This document shows positions 12,880 to 57,943 of a stretch of 64,000 nucleotides of DNA, one piece after another (the first letter of the stretch is position 1; each line of letters starts with the position of its first letter). The notes under the pieces are model-generated. The model had not been told where the DNA came from and did not search any database. It saw nothing but the letters and a program-made list of their open reading frames with translations. Both the position numbers and the translations under genes were made by a program. The stretch lies in sequence record NC_022968.1. The stretch is one strand, 5' to 3'. This DNA comes from Escherichia phage 4MG.

Positions 12880-12885
12880 TTGAAA

Positions 12886-12920
12886 AGCCCCTTGACTTCA
12901 CGGTTGAGGGGCTTTATTGT
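12886..12920 (+). terminator. rho-independent terminator
   Basis: 11-bp stem (with G-U) and 6-nt loop followed by TTTATTGTT directly after stop at 12879. Confidence 0.6.
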
Positions 12921-16495: not shown

Positions 16496-17218
16496 ATGAA
16501 TACAAATCTGTACATTAAGACAGCGTGGACCGACTTCTATGGTTGGACAAATCTCGAATACCTCTGGCTTCTGATCTGTTCTGCATCTATTGCAACGGTC
16601 TCTATCGTCACAGGGGGTACGATGGTAGAGTTTATCTCCTCCGTCACAGGTATCGTCGGTGCGATTCTGGTTGCGAAAGGTAAACTTTCCAGCTACTATT
16701 GGGGCTTCATTGCCACAGTGCTGTATGCTTATGTGTCGTTCACGTACAAACTCTACGGTGAAACGATCATGTACACCGTCTTGTTTACCCCGATGCAGGT
16801 CATTGGTGGTATTATCTGGGCGCGTAAGCTGAATGTTTCTGCTGATGGTGAACGTGCAGACGTTATCAAGCGCTATCTGACGACGAAACAACGTTGGTTG
16901 GTGGGTCTTGCCACAGCAGCAGCCATTGTGTGTTACGCCCTGTTCATCAAAGAGCTTAAAGGTTCCTTACCTGGTCCTGATGCAGCAACGGCTATCCTGT
17001 CGGTTCTTGCAACGTGGATGATGGTTGTTCGATTGTCTGAACAGTGGTACGTGTGGATCATCGTGAACATCGTGGCTGTAGGTATGTGGGTTAACCTGAC
17101 ACTGCATCACCAGGGTGCTGGAGCAGCAAACCTTGCAATGTGGGTAACATTCCTGTTAAACTCTGTGTATGGCGCTTACAAATGGCGTAAAACAGAAAAG
17201 GAAACAGCATATGCGTGA
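16496..17218 (+). CDS. pnuC: PnuC-like nicotinamide riboside transporter
   Basis: 240 aa polytopic membrane protein; size and multi-TM layout of PnuC; WYVWIIVNIV and GGIIWARK segments resemble PnuC signature regions as recalled from memory; 1.7 kb downstream of the nadR-like gene. Confidence 0.6.
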   Translation: MNTNLYIKTAWTDFYGWTNLEYLWLLICSASIATVSIVTGGTMVEFISSVTGIVGAILVAKGKLSSYYWGFIATVLYAYVSFTYKLYGETIMYTVLFTPMQVIGGIIWARKLNVSADGERADVIKRYLTTKQRWLVGLATAAAIVCYALFIKELKGSLPGPDAATAILSVLATWMMVVRLSEQWYVWIIVNIVAVGMWVNLTLHHQGAGAANLAMWVTFLLNSVYGAYKWRKTEKETAYA

Positions 17219-19695: not shown

Positions 19696-19851
19696 ATGAT
19701 TACCTGTGATATGTGTGGGTTGTGTGCATATACGGAAGAGCGTTTGCCGGAGCCGTCCATTGGGGGAGTTGTCAACACTTCCAGTGCGAACACTTCTTGG
19801 ATTGGTCTTCCACCACTTGAACCATTAAATTTGAAAAAGGACAGATTATGA
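19696..19851 (+). CDS. small Cys-rich protein (51 aa)
   Basis: ATG 19696 after AAGGAG; CDMCGLC motif. Confidence 0.35.
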   Translation: MITCDMCGLCAYTEERLPEPSIGGVVNTSSANTSWIGLPPLEPLNLKKDRL

Positions 19852-20057
19852 AAATAGGTTTTATGGCGTTATTGGCGTTAGTATTTATCACACTAAAACT
19901 GTGCGGTGTGATCGCATGGTCATGGTGGTTAGTTCTGCTGCCACTTTACTTCGGTCTGGCGCTTGTCGTTGGTGTGATCGTACTCTTTATCCTTGGTGTG
20001 TTCGGGGTGGCTGGCGTTTCAAGCCTCCTTGAAAAGCTGAAGAAAAAGGGTAAATAA
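19848..20057 (+). CDS. small membrane protein
   Basis: 69 aa; almost entirely hydrophobic; ATGA overlap. Confidence 0.45.
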   Translation: MKIGFMALLALVFITLKLCGVIAWSWWLVLLPLYFGLALVVGVIVLFILGVFGVAGVSSLLEKLKKKGK

Positions 20058-20059
20058 GT

Positions 20060-20088
20060 ATTGACATACAGAGTGCAAACGGGTAAGA
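20060..20088 (+). promoter_or_regulatory. sigma70-like promoter TTGACA-17-TAAGAT with overlapping perfect palindrome
   Basis: TTGACA 20060..20065, TAAGAT 20083..20088; palindrome AACGGGTA-aga-TACCCGTT 20077..20095 spans the -10. Confidence 0.5.
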
Positions 20089-20117
20089 TACCCGTTCACT
20101 CACAAAATGGAGGATTG

Positions 20118-20465
20118 ATGACTGAAGCTGTAACCCCTATCGACAAACAACCCGAAGATCTGCACTTCCTTGACCTTGATGAGGCTCAATTCGGAACGGT
20201 GGTATTCCTTTCAAGCGCTGGCGCTCAAATGAGTCAATTCATTGGCTCAGAACGTATGCGTGAAGAAATGCTCAAAGTTATTAACAGCGGTCAATATGGT
20301 ACTGTTGAAGAGGCTTTGGCATGGGTCCGTGGTCACCGAAACAACCTGCTGCAACTGAATGGTGCGTCATCCTTCGCGATGAACCTGTTGAGCCAGGTTG
20401 AAGACCTGATTGTTGATAGACTTCTGGGTGTTGGTACTGAAACCCAGACTGAAGAAACCAAGTAA
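20118..20465 (+). CDS. hypothetical protein
   Basis: ATG 20118 after GGAGGA; within track ORF 20061..20465. Confidence 0.5.
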   Translation: MTEAVTPIDKQPEDLHFLDLDEAQFGTVVFLSSAGAQMSQFIGSERMREEMLKVINSGQYGTVEEALAWVRGHRNNLLQLNGASSFAMNLLSQVEDLIVDRLLGVGTETQTEETK

Positions 20466-20478
20466 TAAAGGAGAGAGA

Positions 20479-21618
20479 ATGAGCGTAATTACTGAAGTAG
20501 TGAACCCGGCTGATGATTCTGTTGCACTGAAAGCTAAAGGTGTGATCAAACGTATCTTTATCAAGCGTATCAACGCCGATGGTTCACCTAAGGTAACCAA
20601 CATCACCAAGGGTCCAAACAAAGGGAAATCTATTTCCGCGACCCACCGTTATTCCATTCTGCTGACAGCGGGGGGTGTTGATGAATTCGTATCTTTCGGT
20701 GAGGGTGAAGTTAAAAACCTGAAGTACGAAAACCAGTTCCAAGTTAAAACCGACGATGGCTATAAAGATTTGCTGCCCGGTGCAGAGATCTCCATCTACC
20801 CGGTTGAGAAACAGGAATATCAGAAAGATGGTGAAACCAAAGTTTCTTACCAAGGCAAGCGTAAGAACATCAAGATTCTGGTAGATGCACCTGCTGATGC
20901 GGCTCCACAGCAATCAAGTGCTCCGGCACAAACTGGCGGTGCAAAGGGTGCTAAGATCTACGGTGAGATCCTGTCTATCGACGGCAACGTTGCGGTTGTT
21001 AACGATGAGAAGCAGGGTGAGGGGCGTGTGGTTCTGACTGCCGATCAACTAGCAGAGGTTTCTGTGGGTGGTCGTCTGGCTGCTTTCGTAGATCTTTCTA
21101 CAGGCAACATCATCAACAGCTTCAAGGCCTATGGCCCTGTTGGTCAAGGTGGTGGTTCTGGTGGGAAAGGTAAGCGTACCCCTTACGATCCTGTGGGTGT
21201 ATCTGCTGGTCATGCCATGAACGCACTGGTCAACCTGAAGCTGTCAGGCTTTAAGGGTGACGTAGAGGCGGCAGGCAAGGTTGTTCATGATGTGACAACC
21301 AAGCTGATCAAGGAACTTTCCGAAACTGAAGGAAAAGATGTTGGTCAGACTGTAGGTAACGCTGTTAAGTTTGCTGTGACAAACATTGCTGTTAAAGGCA
21401 AGGTTATCGACGCAGATGAACTGGAGAAGGCAACACGCGAAGCGTATGCCCTTGCAGCGACGTTCTATGCATACGCCAGTGCAACTGCACAGGAAGAGGC
21501 TCAGAAGCCAGCACAGAGCGCCCCAGAGCCGCAGGTAGGCAATGGTACAGTATCTGCACCGCCTGTTGATTTCGATGACACCCCTCCTCTGGACTTCGAC
21601 GACGATATTCCGTTCTAA
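20479..21618 (+). CDS. single-stranded DNA-binding protein-like, with bacterial-SSB-type acidic tail
   Basis: ATG 20479 after AAGGAGAGAGA; C-terminus ...VDFDDTPPLDFDDDIPF, identical in its last 8 residues to the canonical E. coli SSB tip. Confidence 0.6.
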   Translation: MSVITEVVNPADDSVALKAKGVIKRIFIKRINADGSPKVTNITKGPNKGKSISATHRYSILLTAGGVDEFVSFGEGEVKNLKYENQFQVKTDDGYKDLLPGAEISIYPVEKQEYQKDGETKVSYQGKRKNIKILVDAPADAAPQQSSAPAQTGGAKGAKIYGEILSIDGNVAVVNDEKQGEGRVVLTADQLAEVSVGGRLAAFVDLSTGNIINSFKAYGPVGQGGGSGGKGKRTPYDPVGVSAGHAMNALVNLKLSGFKGDVEAAGKVVHDVTTKLIKELSETEGKDVGQTVGNAVKFAVTNIAVKGKVIDADELEKATREAYALAATFYAYASATAQEEAQKPAQSAPEPQVGNGTVSAPPVDFDDTPPLDFDDDIPF

Positions 21619-21626
21619 ATAAGAAA

Positions 21627-21649
21627 GGCTCCCGATTGGGAGCCTTTTT
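21627..21649. terminator. bidirectional rho-independent terminator between convergent genes
   Basis: GGCTCCC-GATT-GGGAGCC hairpin with T-runs on both strands. Confidence 0.65.
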
Positions 21650-23398: not shown

Positions 23399-25198
23399 TT
23401 ACGGACGACGAACAATAACGGTGTCGATCACACCATCTTCAACGCCATTATAGGTTAGCTGAAGGATGGTTACAGAACCCGCAGTCTGATTGATTGTCTC
23501 GCTGTTGAGAACCAGATAGTTAGGGTCCAGTGTGACAGTATGACCTCCGGTGGCATCCTGAGTCAGATAAATCATCGCAGAGAATGCGTTTGGTGGAGAA
23601 GGCCATGCACCGATTGTCAGGTTAGCATCAACCAGCACAGTGTAGATGTTGGATGTACCACTCGGTGTCCAGTTAGCCGTTGAGCTTTCTACATCTTCCG
23701 CAACAAGAGTCAGGAATCCAACACGAGCATTAGGAAGGTCTGCGGTATCTTGTACCGTCAGAGTAGCAGCCGTAACAGATCCTGTAGCTGTCAGAGAAGC
23801 AACGCTAACAGATTGTCCGGTAAGGTCAACTGTCAGTCCAGTTACAGTCCCTTGGATAACAAGGTTATTAACCGTAGTTGTTCCAGACCCGTTATTCAGG
23901 GTCACATCCCCGGTAGCAGACAGGTTACCAGTGATTGCTACATCGCCAGTTACGTTAAGGCCTGAAAGAAGCTCTGTTGAACCAGTTACAGACAGATTAC
24001 CACCGATTGCGCCATTAGCAGAACCTGTAGTGAAACCGCCGTTAAGGTTGCTCAGACCACCAACAGTGAAAGGTCCTGTGATTGTACCACTTGAGGCAGT
24101 GAAGTCAACAAGGGTTGTTGACCCATCTACCTTCAGGGTGTTAATCACCTCAAGACTTGAAAATGTGGTGTTGCCGAGAGTAGCAGAACCGTTAACAACC
24201 AGGTCAGAACCAACAGTTACACCTGCGGTAGTCGTAACAGAGTTAGGCAGAATGTCAAGGCCATTAACACTGAAGCTCAAACCAGTCACAGAACCTGTGA
24301 TATGGAGGTTCTCAACCTCTGTCATTCCTGATACTTTCAGACGCGGAGCGGAGATATCCTTCGCGTTATTACCACGGATATACACATAATCGAAGACGTT
24401 GTTACCAACACCTGTCAGAGACATTGTTGTGTCATCAGCAGCAACTGTGCCGTTGACAATAATGTCTGTTTGCAGGTTGTGGGTCTGGATCGCATAAGGA
24501 TCAAGACGGGTCTTGAAGAATGTTGGGTTTCCTGCATCTGTATAGACGAAAGTAAGGCTTGAAGCCTGCTTAGTCAAAATCAGGTTTTGGAAACGTCCGG
24601 TGGAGTTGTCTGCGTTGACCGGGCCGTTAAGAGTGGTTGTACCATTCACAGTCAAGTTGTTCAGTGTCGTTGCACCAGAAACAGTTACGTTCGCAAAGGT
24701 AACACTACCACCAGAGATACTGGACAAAGCATTTGCAATCGCAGTCGTAACGAAAGCGGTTGTTGCAATTGTCGTACTGTTGCTGTTTGCAGCAGGTGTT
24801 GGGGCCTGCGGGTTACCTGTCAGGATTGGGCTGTTGATTGGAGCATAGATGGATGCCATCGCCGCTGCATCATTGTACAGTCTCCAGTTGACGCTGGTAG
24901 ATGGGTTTGCTGGGAGAGTTACAGGAGCAGTTGCCGTTGCACCCGGAGCATACCACCACTGAACACCATTGGTGCCATTAAATGCGTAAAGCTGGTTAAA
25001 GACCGTCGCTTGAGACCCGGCTACCCAGGGAATAGGCGGTGTCTTGAAAAATAAGTTGTCCAGAAGTGCTTTACGAACTGTTGGGATGGTGCTACCATCT
25101 TCAGTAACAACAGTTTCAGAAGCAGTACCGTTGACAACTTTGTGCAGGCGTTCAGAGTCTTCGATGACCTGATCAACAGCCTGTTCAAATTGAGTCAT
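23399..25198 (-). CDS. tail fiber protein
   Basis: Thr/Ser/Gly/Asn-rich beta-type repeats (NLTVNGTTTLNG...); start ambiguous (ATG 25198 vs GTG 25243). Confidence 0.55.
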   Translation of the reverse strand: MTQFEQAVDQVIEDSERLHKVVNGTASETVVTEDGSTIPTVRKALLDNLFFKTPPIPWVAGSQATVFNQLYAFNGTNGVQWWYAPGATATAPVTLPANPSTSVNWRLYNDAAAMASIYAPINSPILTGNPQAPTPAANSNSTTIATTAFVTTAIANALSSISGGSVTFANVTVSGATTLNNLTVNGTTTLNGPVNADNSTGRFQNLILTKQASSLTFVYTDAGNPTFFKTRLDPYAIQTHNLQTDIIVNGTVAADDTTMSLTGVGNNVFDYVYIRGNNAKDISAPRLKVSGMTEVENLHITGSVTGLSFSVNGLDILPNSVTTTAGVTVGSDLVVNGSATLGNTTFSSLEVINTLKVDGSTTLVDFTASSGTITGPFTVGGLSNLNGGFTTGSANGAIGGNLSVTGSTELLSGLNVTGDVAITGNLSATGDVTLNNGSGTTTVNNLVIQGTVTGLTVDLTGQSVSVASLTATGSVTAATLTVQDTADLPNARVGFLTLVAEDVESSTANWTPSGTSNIYTVLVDANLTIGAWPSPPNAFSAMIYLTQDATGGHTVTLDPNYLVLNSETINQTAGSVTILQLTYNGVEDGVIDTVIVRRP

Positions 25199-37143: not shown

Positions 37144-38132
37144 TATTCCTCCACAATGCCACCACGGGTTTCTGCAAGTCCGATCTCAGACACCCAATCG
37201 CCACCTTCAAGTTGGCCTTTGTGAGTAAGATAAACTACCTTGTAGAAGCCTGTGTATTTCTGGCTTTTTAGATAAATTGTGCTTTCTGGGATGATCGCAC
37301 CGTTAAGTTCTGTAACAACAACAAGACCTGCGTCCTCTTTGATTTCAGCACGACTTGGACCTTTATTGGTCTTCGGCTTACTTTTAGACTTCTTCTTTTT
37401 CTCAAGGCGGCGTTTTGCAGGCTCTGGGTTTTGCGGGGTTGGTGAATCATGCATCCCAGATTCAGCACTGATCTCAAACACCGCATTGCGGAATCTCTTG
37501 CCCTGTGTAGTCCAGTACACAGCACCGTCCTGAACACTAAAGGTTGATCCGGTGTTTTTGGCAAGGCGTTCGAGATTGTTTGCAGCGTTACCAGTAAATG
37601 CCATAGACTGCTGAAGGGTCTGGTTACCGAACTTAACCACCTTACCAATAGGTAGTTTAAGGTCTGAAACAAGGTCATTAAGAACCGTATCCAGCGGTGT
37701 CCCCTTCTTGTAAGAACGGGCAGTCTTTGCTGTCATGATGTTGGTTGTTGCATCACCCAAGATCATTTTTGTTTGACGAGTATGACCATCCCACTTATCC
37801 TGAACAAACTCTACAGTCCCGGAGAAGATTGTCTGGTTTTCACCATCGAACCCTGCCTCCAGAACAATAGCAATCGACTCACGCTGGTTAGCATCAAGAT
37901 AGCTTACCGTTTCATCAGACAGGTTGTAAAGGGTGACATACCCTTTGTTAGGGTCTTTTGAGTTATCTTTCTTCACCTCGAACTCGATATTTGCTGCCCC
38001 TGTTTCGTTACTGACAACATAGGCATCCTTCGTGTTCTGGTTGGTGTAGTCAGAAATGTTGGTTGGCTTTTGCCCGATGTATACGGGCTTGCCAATAGTA
38101 AGTCTGAATGTTCGTGTTCTGTAAGAAGGCAT
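37143..38132 (-). CDS. baseplate hub-like protein
   Basis: 329 aa; Lys-rich linker KRRLEKKKKSKSKPK; position-based. Confidence 0.4.
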   Translation of the reverse strand: MPSYRTRTFRLTIGKPVYIGQKPTNISDYTNQNTKDAYVVSNETGAANIEFEVKKDNSKDPNKGYVTLYNLSDETVSYLDANQRESIAIVLEAGFDGENQTIFSGTVEFVQDKWDGHTRQTKMILGDATTNIMTAKTARSYKKGTPLDTVLNDLVSDLKLPIGKVVKFGNQTLQQSMAFTGNAANNLERLAKNTGSTFSVQDGAVYWTTQGKRFRNAVFEISAESGMHDSPTPQNPEPAKRRLEKKKKSKSKPKTNKGPSRAEIKEDAGLVVVTELNGAIIPESTIYLKSQKYTGFYKVVYLTHKGQLEGGDWVSEIGLAETRGGIVEE

Positions 38133-44602: not shown

Positions 44603-44666
44603 CGGTTTCCTCTTCTTTATTTCTGTACATACAGTTATTGACCAGCACCTCGTTGTGCTGTATTAT

Positions 44667-44682
44667 GAGGGCCGAAGCCCTC
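44667..44682 (-). other. UUCG tetraloop hairpin upstream of sheath gene
   Basis: Minus-strand GAGGGC-UUCG-GCCCTC; second inverted repeat CAGCAC..GTGCTG at 44643..44660. Confidence 0.4.
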
Positions 44683-44732
44683 TTATACGATCACTAATAA
44701 GCGAGAGCTTATCAATAACCGAGTGGTTTTCT

Positions 44733-51484: not shown

Positions 51485-51617
51485 AAAATCTCCATTGGTT
51501 ACCTTAGTAAAAACCACTTGACACCAGTCATGAAGTGGCTATTATTAAGGTGACGAAAATAAAAAAGGGAGAGGTGAATAATCACCTCCCCCTCTTAGAG
51601 GTAGCAGTTACGCTATC

Positions 51618-54786: not shown

Positions 54787-56337
54787 TTAATTATCCATAT
54801 TGGATACGGAATTGTCTCTTGTTGAGGAGATTTTTCCAGTTCCATTACCGCTAGAGCCTGCTGCCATACCATCACCGGAGCGACTGACATCCTGACCAAG
54901 GAGTTTCAGAAGTTCGTCGGTAGACATGTCCTCAGGAATCTCCTCATCAAAGCCACCAACTTCAAGGATCTTGTTGATAACAGTAGGAGTTTTAGGTAAG
55001 TACCCAACAGCACCAATACGCTGAACAAACTTGGAGAACCCTTCCATATCCACTTCTTGAATCAGTCCCGGCTTCAGTTTAGGCATGTCTTCGTCGGAAA
55101 GACGAATGTCATTTAGTGCCAGAAGCTGCGGGATCAGGTTCTTGTTGAACGCTTCAACAATGATGTCGATATCGCGTTGAACGAAGTGTCCGTGAATAGA
55201 TTGCTTGGATTCTGACAGGTTGTAGGAACCCTGACCATCGTTACCAAGGTTGATGAAACCAGCACCAAAACGGTCAAGGATCGCCTTTTTACGTGAGTTC
55301 ACCAGTTCTTGTGTGCTATACTGCTTACCAGCACCGTCAATGCCCTTCAGAGCCATCTTGTACTGTTCACCACCCTGAGCGTTCATATCTGAAGGTAGGA
55401 TGAAGTAAGCTTGCTCACCTGCGTGTGCGTTTGCAGCGTCAGCCATTAATCCTTGAACCATATCGGCTTCTGGGGATTTAGGGTCCATTGCTGCTTTGTT
55501 CAGAATCTGAGAAGGGATCTTAAGTTCAATGATACCACCAAGGTCTTTAGATGCCCCGATAGTCTCAAGGTTTTCAATCAAGATCTTCTCACGGAAGGCA
55601 CGATAACATCCAACCAAAGGAGATACACCCGCCGGGTTGGATTCTGTACCACCCAGACTCATCACCATCAATTTGTTGATAGGGATAAATACTTCATCAG
55701 CAGAGGATGTCAGGTTGGTAACCAGAGACATTGCAGAAGAAATCTGGGTCAATCCGTTCTGGAAGTTAGCAAAAGCCAGTTGGCTTTGGTAAATCCCTTT
55801 CAGTGTACGACCATCATCGTCGAAAACCCAAGGCTTAGAACGAGACAGGCTTGACTGAGGACGGAAAGCAATCTTATCAATAGTGATGTACCCTGCATAC
55901 TTTGACGGAGCAGATTCAGTACGGTATACTTTCTCAAAGATGGAAAAACCATATTCGTTGAAAGTTGCTGCACTACGAGCAACGTCACGAAGGGTTTGCT
56001 GGTTGGCAAGGTTCTTCAGGGCGTACTCTACAAACTCTGCGGCATCTTTGGAAGCTTGGCTATCACGATTGAACAGGATTTTAAAATCGTTGAATGCTTT
56101 AGTTACGAATACGTATTTCGTATCAAGCGCCGTGGAGACAGTATGATCCTGTTTCATCGCCTCTACGGTAGCCAGGAAGCAAGGCCAGCGTAGCTCTTCT
56201 ACCTTCATCACTTCGGACTCTGCACGAAGCTGGGAGAGAGCACCAGAGCCTAATTCCCCGGTACGGAGGCGGCTAACCGCAAGGTTTTCATTCCCTGCTT
56301 TTACAACCGCCCCTGGTTGTGCAAATCTTGTTGACAC
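54787..56337 (-). CDS. portal protein
   Basis: 516 aa immediately downstream of large terminase. Confidence 0.6.
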   Translation of the reverse strand: MSTRFAQPGAVVKAGNENLAVSRLRTGELGSGALSQLRAESEVMKVEELRWPCFLATVEAMKQDHTVSTALDTKYVFVTKAFNDFKILFNRDSQASKDAAEFVEYALKNLANQQTLRDVARSAATFNEYGFSIFEKVYRTESAPSKYAGYITIDKIAFRPQSSLSRSKPWVFDDDGRTLKGIYQSQLAFANFQNGLTQISSAMSLVTNLTSSADEVFIPINKLMVMSLGGTESNPAGVSPLVGCYRAFREKILIENLETIGASKDLGGIIELKIPSQILNKAAMDPKSPEADMVQGLMADAANAHAGEQAYFILPSDMNAQGGEQYKMALKGIDGAGKQYSTQELVNSRKKAILDRFGAGFINLGNDGQGSYNLSESKQSIHGHFVQRDIDIIVEAFNKNLIPQLLALNDIRLSDEDMPKLKPGLIQEVDMEGFSKFVQRIGAVGYLPKTPTVINKILEVGGFDEEIPEDMSTDELLKLLGQDVSRSGDGMAAGSSGNGTGKISSTRDNSVSNMDN

Positions 56338-57911: not shown

Positions 57912-57943
57912 TAAAAATAAAGCCCTTATCACAAAATAAGGGC
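57912..57943 (-). terminator. hairpin + U-tract between lysis genes and terminase
   Basis: 8-bp stem GCCCTTAT/ATAAGGGC with 6-nt loop, then UAUUUUUAU on minus strand. Confidence 0.5.

Follow-up and report, generated by a model that had tools for sequence, protein, structure and literature searches.

A sigma-70 promoter overlapped by a conserved stem-loop upstream of a probable single-stranded-DNA-binding protein operon in Escherichia phage 4MG

A perfect palindrome lying across the -10 hexamer of a promoter can be read as a protein-binding site in duplex DNA or as a hairpin of a single strand. Which of the two applies is the question raised by a locus of Escherichia phage 4MG (NC_022968.1), from which a stretch of 64,000 nucleotides (nt), in the following the window, was analyzed. 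Here, a promoter-like sequence TTGACA-17-TAAGAT and an overlapping palindrome occupy a 60-nt gap between the gene of a membrane protein of 69 amino acids (aa) and a two-gene operon. A preliminary description of the window, made from the sequence, saw in the palindrome the geometry of an operator for a dimeric repressor or a phage middle-transcription regulator. Comparison with relatives led us to a different reading, for which we see roughly even chances: the promoter is a real sigma-70 promoter, and joined to it is a conserved stem-loop of the sense strand whose target is RNA reading through from upstream early genes.

The window belongs to a myovirus of the Vequintavirinae, with the Seunavirus phages LNA4, EC152 and GAP31 as closest relatives (~84-88% nucleotide identity). 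This group, which includes rV5, PVP-SE1 and GAP31, is widely used in phage therapy and biocontrol, and its transcription is essentially unstudied beyond promoter prediction. The element thereby offers a concrete and testable regulatory signal in front of an operon of these phages that encodes a probable single-stranded-DNA-binding protein (SSB).

The promoter and the hairpin across its -10 hexamer

The -35 hexamer TTGACA (20061..20066, + strand) and the -10 hexamer TAAGAT (20084..20089, +) are separated by a spacer of 17 nt (20067-20083) and match the sigma-70 consensus at 10 of 12 positions; the surrounding layout is aaaaagggTAAataagta-TTGACA...TAAGAT...GGAGGAttgATG. The overlapping palindrome is perfect, with the arms AACGGGTA (20078-20085) and TACCCGTT (20089-20096) around an AGA loop (20086-20088). 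The T and A of the -10 hexamer form the last two pairs of the 5′ arm, its AGA is the loop, and its final T opens the 3′ arm. Promoter and palindrome are thus both present as had been described, except that the palindrome covers 20078-20096 instead of 20077..20095, its 3′ arm ending one base further downstream. Drawn as a hairpin (20078..20096, +), the palindrome has 8 pairs and a 3-nt loop. An outer helix that had not been noticed before lengthens this stem across a 2-nt bulge (CA, 20076-20077) by pairing GAGTG (20071-20075) with CACTC (20097-20101). In RNA folding, the extended hairpin (20071..20101, +) carries the -10 at its apex and reaches -16.7 to -17.5 kcal/mol; the fold of the whole region 20058-20125 has -17.5 kcal/mol (z = -2.34). 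From standard sigma-70 geometry, transcription is predicted to start at 20096..20098 (+), approximately 7 nt past the -10. A transcript from this promoter would hold only the tail of the 3′ arm, so it could not form the hairpin. Further downstream follow the Shine-Dalgarno sequence GGAGGA (20109-20114, +) and the ATG start codon (20118-20120) of a 115-aa protein gene, and this part (GGAGGATTGATGAC) is kept in Seunavirus and Mydovirus.

Neither the promoter alone nor the palindrome alone is statistically unusual, and the case rests on the comparison with relatives. The window contains three perfect palindromes of this format (8-bp arms, 3-nt loop) compared with 1.08 +/- 1.0 in shuffled sequences, and the region from 12 to 30 kb contains 20 sigma-70-like matches compared with 23.9 +/- 4.3 expected from shuffled sequence. 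Further palindromes of this format lie at 24104-24122 and 55142-55160 (GTCAACAAGGGTTGTTGAC and TTGTTGAACGCTTCAACAA). No Rfam family matched the element, even with the threshold relaxed to E <= 10. The window has 26 promoter-like sites, and the one described here is the only one with a hairpin centred on the -10; with 1/26, such a hairpin was rejected as a general trait of 4MG promoters.

For the comparison, regions upstream of the orthologous 115-aa protein gene were gathered from GenBank phages, IMG/VR, metagenomes and Logan/ENA contigs. This yielded 29 distinct sequences from Seunavirus, Mydovirus, Henunavirus, Vequintavirus, Avunavirus and unnamed lineages, at least six lineages in all; loci of this collection are given with L numbers. 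An IMG/VR scan anchored on the Shine-Dalgarno/start sequence returned mostly unrelated contigs. The operon as such is contained in more than 200 database records. The pattern TTG[ATC][ACT]A-N17-TAnnnT, which has a chance of ~0.003 (0.3%) of matching a random 100-nt stretch, was found just upstream of the start codon in all 29. The -35 hexamer is TTGACA in all lineages except the rV5 group (TTGTAA). The -10 reads TAnnAT at 17-nt spacing in 29/29 sequences, and its position 5, left free by the search pattern, is an A in 24 of the 24 aligned sequences. The spacing is always 17 nt, while the spacer sequences cannot be aligned between genera. Because the hexamers are kept at this fixed distance despite unalignable spacers, the sigma-70 promoter in front of the operon is, on comparative evidence, conserved and real. 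The earlier promoter assignment thus holds in the form TTGnnA-17-TAnnAT in every lineage examined. In line with this, the rV5 paper concluded that phages of this group depend on host-type promoters throughout the genome (PMC3606486). The intergenic 60 nt show 80-93% identity compared with 55-91% for the flanking genes. The promoter would be expected to fire, and to do so from the start position predicted above.

The palindrome is, judged by the same sequences, conserved as a hairpin and not as a sequence. Within Seunavirus and Mydovirus the stem is nearly invariant except for a double change at the third pair, which is C:G in the window, GAP31, EC152, LNA4 and FENT2, and G:C in PVP-SE1, KE22/23, Csp-D17, AV124 and the Mydo group. 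Beyond these two genera, the arms differ entirely in sequence yet still pair, with up to 12-16 pairs and the same apex. The arms are CACAGCGGAGGG / CCCTTCGCTGTG in Hena1, AAGCGAAGAG / CTCTTCGCTT in L058, AGAAGGGGATGCTA / TAGTGTCTCCTTCT in rV5, GACGGGGAGAGT / ACTTTCTTCGTC in L127, AGAGGGTA / TACCCTCT in L124, and GGGCTA / TGGCCC in L066. For covariation analysis, 24 sequences were aligned free of gaps and anchored on both hexamers. Of the cells for the eight inner pairs, 91.7% are paired, versus 33-54% after shifting the 3′ partner by 1-3 columns, with a covariation score of 0.593 versus at most 0.18 for the slid registers, a contrast that is inflated because the structure was first read from one of the aligned sequences. 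None of 500 shuffles reached the observed values. Changes on both sides were found at 5/8 inner pairs, and with one sequence taken per lineage, single stem positions show CG/GC/AT, GC/CG, GC/TG/TA and AT/GC. A 14-pair version of the stem is paired at 73.5%. Minimum-energy folds of the individual sequences are free of the bias mentioned; they place the apex at columns 32-33.5, within the -10 (columns 30-35), in 25/29 cases. The exceptions are Ro1, in which the upstream gene runs into the promoter, and three Av-05-like sequences. Support for the outer helix is weaker than for the inner stem, and we regard it as only partial: L124 has kept the helix with an altered internal loop, and in KE23, the Mydo group and L125 it is weakened without compensation.

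These data also bear on the alternative that a chance inverted repeat without function persists inside a conserved promoter. Such palindromes are expected about once per window by chance, and Ro1 and the Av-05 group manage without a hairpin. Chance would, however, have to account for compensatory double changes at five of eight stem positions and for separate genera that carry entirely different stems with the same apex, with slid-register controls far lower. We therefore consider absence of function highly improbable.

Different arrangements were observed at the same position in some phages. In Ro1 (L015 885-917) the hairpin is replaced by another palindrome of 12 bp, GATAAT/ATTATC, which has the -10 (TAATAT) at its centre, and the stop codon of the upstream gene lies inside the spacer; the hexamers of this palindrome resemble Fur-box repeats. 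The Certreviruses (L044 1390-1495, which is CR3, L045 and L046) and SSBI34 (L048 1403-1495) are without a hairpin across the -10. Before their SSB-like gene, TTGCAA-16-TAACCT/TAATAT is followed at once by GGCCTCA..TGGGGCC plus TTGTTTAT, a hairpin that by its sequence is terminator-like and located right where the predicted transcript begins.

Strand preference and the possible role of the stem-loop

Information on the strand on which the hairpin is selected came from its imperfect pairs and from comparing the folds of one interval as sense RNA and as antisense RNA. The non-Watson-Crick cells of the inner stem comprise 22 G.T combinations, the sense type, versus 3 A.C. In the rV5, Hena1, L126 and L127 lineages, the stem contains G·U pairs that are workable on the sense strand only. 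The advantage of the sense fold amounts to 6.7-12.1 kcal/mol in the rV5 group, 10.0 kcal/mol in L127, 4.7 kcal/mol in Hena1, 3.4 kcal/mol in SPLA5a and 2.8 kcal/mol in L126. The preference for the sense strand is strong outside the clade of the window, and it is extended to that clade by homology of position. A terminator on the antisense strand, directed against convergent late transcription, was rejected, as a strong bidirectional terminator is already present at 21624-21647 and several lineages have a poor antisense fold.

The proposed operator, at which a dimeric phage or host repressor would bind the duplex palindrome, block RNA polymerase at the -10 and thereby time the SSB operon, did not find support. 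Its geometry is suggestive: a perfect 8+8 dyad covers the -10 with half-site centres ~11 bp apart, the C:G to G:C swap within Seunavirus/Mydovirus preserves the dyad symmetry, and in the clade of the window the whole 60-nt intergenic region, loop flanks included, is unusually invariant and free of strand bias. Further copies of the palindrome, which had been proposed as a check, are absent from the window within 2 mismatches, the nearest match being AAAGGGTGACATACCCTTT at 37928-37946 (+) with 3 mismatches. The 60-nt element occurs at one place per genome in 55 relatives, and with the palindrome alone as query, IMG/VR yielded one site per genome in the complete genomes of PVP-SE1, BIS47 and KNP2. 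A multi-site regulon or a dispersed repeat is ruled out by this single copy per genome, and a second operator site is likewise missing. In other genera, arms of 12-16 pairs have a wholly different sequence around an unchanged apex. The sense-only G·U pairs of four lineages disfavour an operator because a symmetric duplex site would not produce such pairing, and the outer helix, offset by a 2-nt bulge, suits a hairpin and not a symmetric duplex site. A repressor candidate was not found near the element; the adjacent genes gave no match to a DNA-binding domain. The adjoining 115-aa protein is acidic (pI 4.4) without a match to a DNA-binding or Pfam domain, and it is unlikely to be the cognate repressor. 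Taken together, we judge an operator to be unlikely, if somewhat less so in the clade of the window with its perfect, strand-neutral dyad.

We favour a stem-loop selected as a single-stranded structure of the sense strand, which most likely forms in read-through RNA from the long upstream early-gene cluster. The 69-aa protein gene is located upstream and co-directional, so read-through transcripts would contain the hairpin. All genes over ~7 kb upstream of the element are co-directional, and the terminator scan found no strong canonical terminator between about 13 kb and 20 kb; RNA begun upstream should therefore reach the element. The promoter would restart transcription for the two-gene operon of the acidic 115-aa protein and the probable SSB. 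The hairpin might act as a barrier which attenuates or pauses read-through, or protects the 3′ end after cleavage. Such a barrier would separate the upstream unit from the SSB operon and leave the operon's level to its own promoter. Both the read-through RNA and the effect of the hairpin on it are what we infer from this arrangement. The 5′ arm is formed by the promoter spacer and the 3′ arm by the stretch past the -10, which places the A/T-rich -10 at the apex. This fixed apex could result from compaction, because in a gap of 60 nt only the spacer and the stretch behind the -10 may be able to carry G+C-rich arms.

Several observations weigh against this reading. An RNA barrier has no obvious need for exact centring on the -10. 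In most lineages the stem is not followed by a U-tract: the window has CACUCACAAAA, and Hena1, L126, L127 and L124 are A-rich at this place. U-rich, terminator-like tails were found only in the rV5 group (AUGUUGUU) and L066 (CUUUUAUU). Efficient intrinsic termination is doubtful for this reason, and the missing U-tract makes partial attenuation, pausing or 3′-end protection likelier. The promoter is kept in Ro1 and the Av-05 group next to no stable hairpin, and the hairpin of the Certreviruses lies after and not across the -10. In the clade of the window the palindrome is perfect and folds equally well on both strands, with a slight antisense advantage in the Mydo group (2.4 kcal/mol), L131 (2.8 kcal/mol) and L125 (4.3 kcal/mol). 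A literature search for transcriptomics of Vequintavirinae found nothing usable. As a separate candidate, a canonical intrinsic terminator was rejected, since the stem is followed by CACUCACAAAAUGG without a U-tract and was not called by the terminator scan.

The exact centring on the -10 could also reflect a switch at the DNA level. Here, a hairpin of the non-template strand or a cruciform would hide or present the -10 upon unwinding, and firing would track topology or the single-stranded state. The unwinding could be caused by supercoiling, passing transcription or replication, and the encoded protein with OB-fold and SSB tail might read the hairpin, resulting in autoregulation. The apex stays within one nucleotide of the -10 centre in at least five genera despite complete turnover of the stem, and the closing pair is A(-11):T(-7). 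A(-11) and T(-7) are the bases captured by sigma-70 as single-stranded DNA during open-complex formation. Hairpins of single-stranded DNA also tolerate G.T pairs, and the operon encodes a probable ssDNA-binding protein. A cruciform, on the other hand, needs both strands, and in the rV5 and L127 lineages its template arm would contain 3-4 A.C mismatches; with 8 bp the stem is also short for extrusion, and the A:T closing pair follows automatically from TAnnnT. Direct evidence for such a switch was not found, and compaction explains the geometry more simply. We know of no precedent at sigma-70 promoters in phages. A switch of this kind seems rather improbable to us, and its special form, a structure-gated, autoregulatory sigma-70 promoter with the -10 in the loop of the unwound non-template strand and possibly read by the encoded OB-fold/SSB-tail protein, even slightly less probable. 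If the centring is functional, the locus would be a natural example of a sigma-70 promoter gated by nucleic-acid structure. If it is merely compact, it would provide an annotation rule, according to which a palindrome over the -10 in these phages is not an operator by default.

Alternatively, the stem-loop in read-through RNA might not be a passive barrier but be recognised by a protein, such as RNase III, RNase E or a translational regulator. The structure is conserved on the sense strand with constrained loop and closing pairs, and between the stem and the ribosome-binding site lies a single-stranded, A-rich tract. Control at the RNA level is known for phage SSB genes, e.g., gene 32 of T4. 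The loop sequence is, however, dictated by the -10, which makes its conservation uninformative on protein recognition. With 8-16 pairs the stems are short for an RNase III substrate, an Rfam match is lacking, and the transcript from the operon's own promoter is without the hairpin. A protein partner of this kind is likewise rather improbable in our view.

Neighbouring genes and further sites in the window

The gene upstream of the element (19848..20057, +) encodes the 69-aa small membrane protein, which was assigned to phrog_1374 (PHROG E 8.8e-23) and is supported by the list of open reading frames and by synteny in relatives; its stop codon is located 3 nt before the -35. Downstream, the operon consists of the gene of the acidic 115-aa protein (20118..20465, +; phrog_7310, no assigned function) and the gene of the 379-aa protein (20479..21618, +; phrog_4477). 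The operon is closed by a canonical bidirectional intrinsic terminator (21624..21647), which faces convergent tail-fibre genes.

The gene pair had been described as ending with an SSB-like protein. The pair is as described, and the label is partly earned, since sequence similarity of the 379-aa protein to SSB is limited to its C-terminal tip. This tip, DFDDDIPF, has D372, F373, D376, I377, P378 and F379 invariant in 8 orthologues, and its residues are invariant or >=90% conserved in 60 homologues. A profile match connects the tail with that of E. coli SSB (E 0.0028), and outside the tail there is no Pfam or PDB sequence match. An AlphaFold model from the 60-sequence alignment reached a predicted local distance difference test (pLDDT) value of 75.6, compared with 38.9 for a single-sequence prediction, and has beta-rich, OB-fold-like N-terminal domains and a helical domain. 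Foldseek matches of this model were weak, none at E <= 1e-3, and nearly all of them were OB-fold binders (mtSSB, SsbB, RPA, HIN-200). On the basis of the tail and the model, the 379-aa protein is probably an ssDNA-binding protein with a tail like that of the host SSB.

Some features of this protein vary among relatives. Its gene is mosaic among close relatives, the first 500 nt being 84% identical to the window in KE23 and 56% in PVP-SE1. In the EspYZU/Csp-D17 phages (loci among L007, L009, L004 and L006), the 115-aa protein is 91% identical and the adjoining 379-aa protein 37%. Both observations suggest a recombination break within the 379-aa protein gene or immediately before it. In some pairs of phages, identity changes across the element (67 / 93 / 75% for FENT2). 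The clearest mosaic break lies inside the 379-aa protein gene and not at the element. In rV5 (ORF214, L042), ABPH49 (L047) and SSBI34 (L048), the SSB-tail protein is annotated 15 residues past the DDIPF tip, the extension being APVGLQY...HAL/HAI/YVL (alignment columns 465-479). For the tip of E. coli SSB, a free C-terminus is required. The extension could be real, a missed stop or frameshift, or a tip-masking variant.

The early cluster upstream also contains a gene for a PnuC-type nicotinamide mononucleotide transporter (16496-17218, +), and in the annotation of EC152 a nicotinamide-nucleotide adenylyltransferase is located just upstream of it. Both together represent a salvage module for nicotinamide adenine dinucleotide that is typical of the group.

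Promoter boxes and stem-loops also overlap elsewhere in the window. At 12885-12920 (+), a strong terminator hairpin (AAAAGCCCCTTGACTTCACGGTTGAGGGGCTTT) contains a TTGACT -35 and is followed by TATTGT at the right spacing; terminator and promoter apparently share bases here, in an overlap geometry unlike that of the element at 20078-20096. TTGACC-17-TATTAT at 44638-44690 (+) has one hairpin between the boxes and a second one, GAGGGCcgaaGCCCTC, right after the -10. At 51510-51550 (+), TTGACA at 51518 lies inside the hairpin CCACTTGAC..AAGTGG, i.e., the stem-loop covers the -35. The sites at 12885, 44638 and 51518 are unrelated in sequence to the element. That the same phage has such overlaps at 12885-12920, 44638 and 51518 supports the reading of the element as promoter plus stem-loop. 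On the minus strand, a terminator hairpin AAGGCCCTTATTTTGTGATAAGGGCTTT with a T-run (57922-57943) directly follows TTGACA, with no -10 at usable spacing; it is probably a terminator only.

Comparison with known systems

The element resembles an intrinsic terminator in being a stable, G+C-containing stem-loop just past the stop codon of a co-directional gene, but a U run after the stem is missing in the window and most relatives, and 4MG has textbook terminators elsewhere, e.g., at 21624-21647. With LexA boxes and lambdoid operators it shares a dyad centred on the -10 and about one helical turn between half-site centres. It differs from them as a single site whose pairing, not sequence, is kept between genera, by its sense-only wobble pairs and by arms of up to 16 pairs.

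The hairpin promoters of the virion RNA polymerase of coliphage N4 have a stem of 5-7 bp and a 3-nt loop and are helped by E. coli SSB. A short stem, a 3-nt loop centred near -11, a phage genome and an SSB nearby are thus common to both systems. The N4 hairpins, however, are read on the template strand by the phage virion RNA polymerase and are without -35/-10 boxes, whereas the boxes in 4MG are of the host sigma-70 type and the wobble pairs point to the sense strand.

The closest likeness in the arrangement of parts is with the promoter-early stem-loop (PeSL) cassettes of the T4-like phages RB49, phi1, PST and nt-1 (Arbiol et al. 2010, PMC2839356; Comeau et al. 2014, PMC4122927). The stem-loop of these cassettes was proposed to terminate or attenuate upstream transcription (PMC2839356; PMC4122927), and one PeSL stem-loop that was tested lowered the expression of a reporter to an extent similar to that of a strong terminator (PMC2839356). 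Both kinds of element have the upstream stop codon within A/T-rich sequence, followed by sigma-70 boxes, a stem-loop over the -10 that includes G-T pairs, a Shine-Dalgarno sequence and a start codon, and both lie between small early genes of a large lytic myovirus. In PeSLs the stem-loop may lie between the boxes, over the -35 or the -10, or directly behind the -10. Overlap with the -10 is one of the two commonest layouts, and by analogy the overlap geometries at 12885-12920, 44638 and 51518 would correspond to other PeSL subclasses. The role proposed here, to restart transcription and to damp upstream arrivals, would also be similar. In contrast to the PeSLs, which are many sequence-similar cassettes in variable regions, flank orphan genes and recombine, the 4MG element is single-copy and vertically inherited before one conserved operon, with covariation in the stem and an apex fixed on the -10. 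It also has no polyG/polyC stems and, in most lineages, nothing like a U-tract. In the literature on Vequintavirinae that was found, no such promoter/stem-loop motifs were reported. Composite promoter/stem-loop motifs as such are already known; new are the single copy, the vertical inheritance, the different subfamily and the support by covariation. The structure of the 4MG type is backed by compensatory evolution, an analysis that was not part of the PeSL papers, and the design of promoter plus stem-loop from the T4-like phages is also present outside of them.

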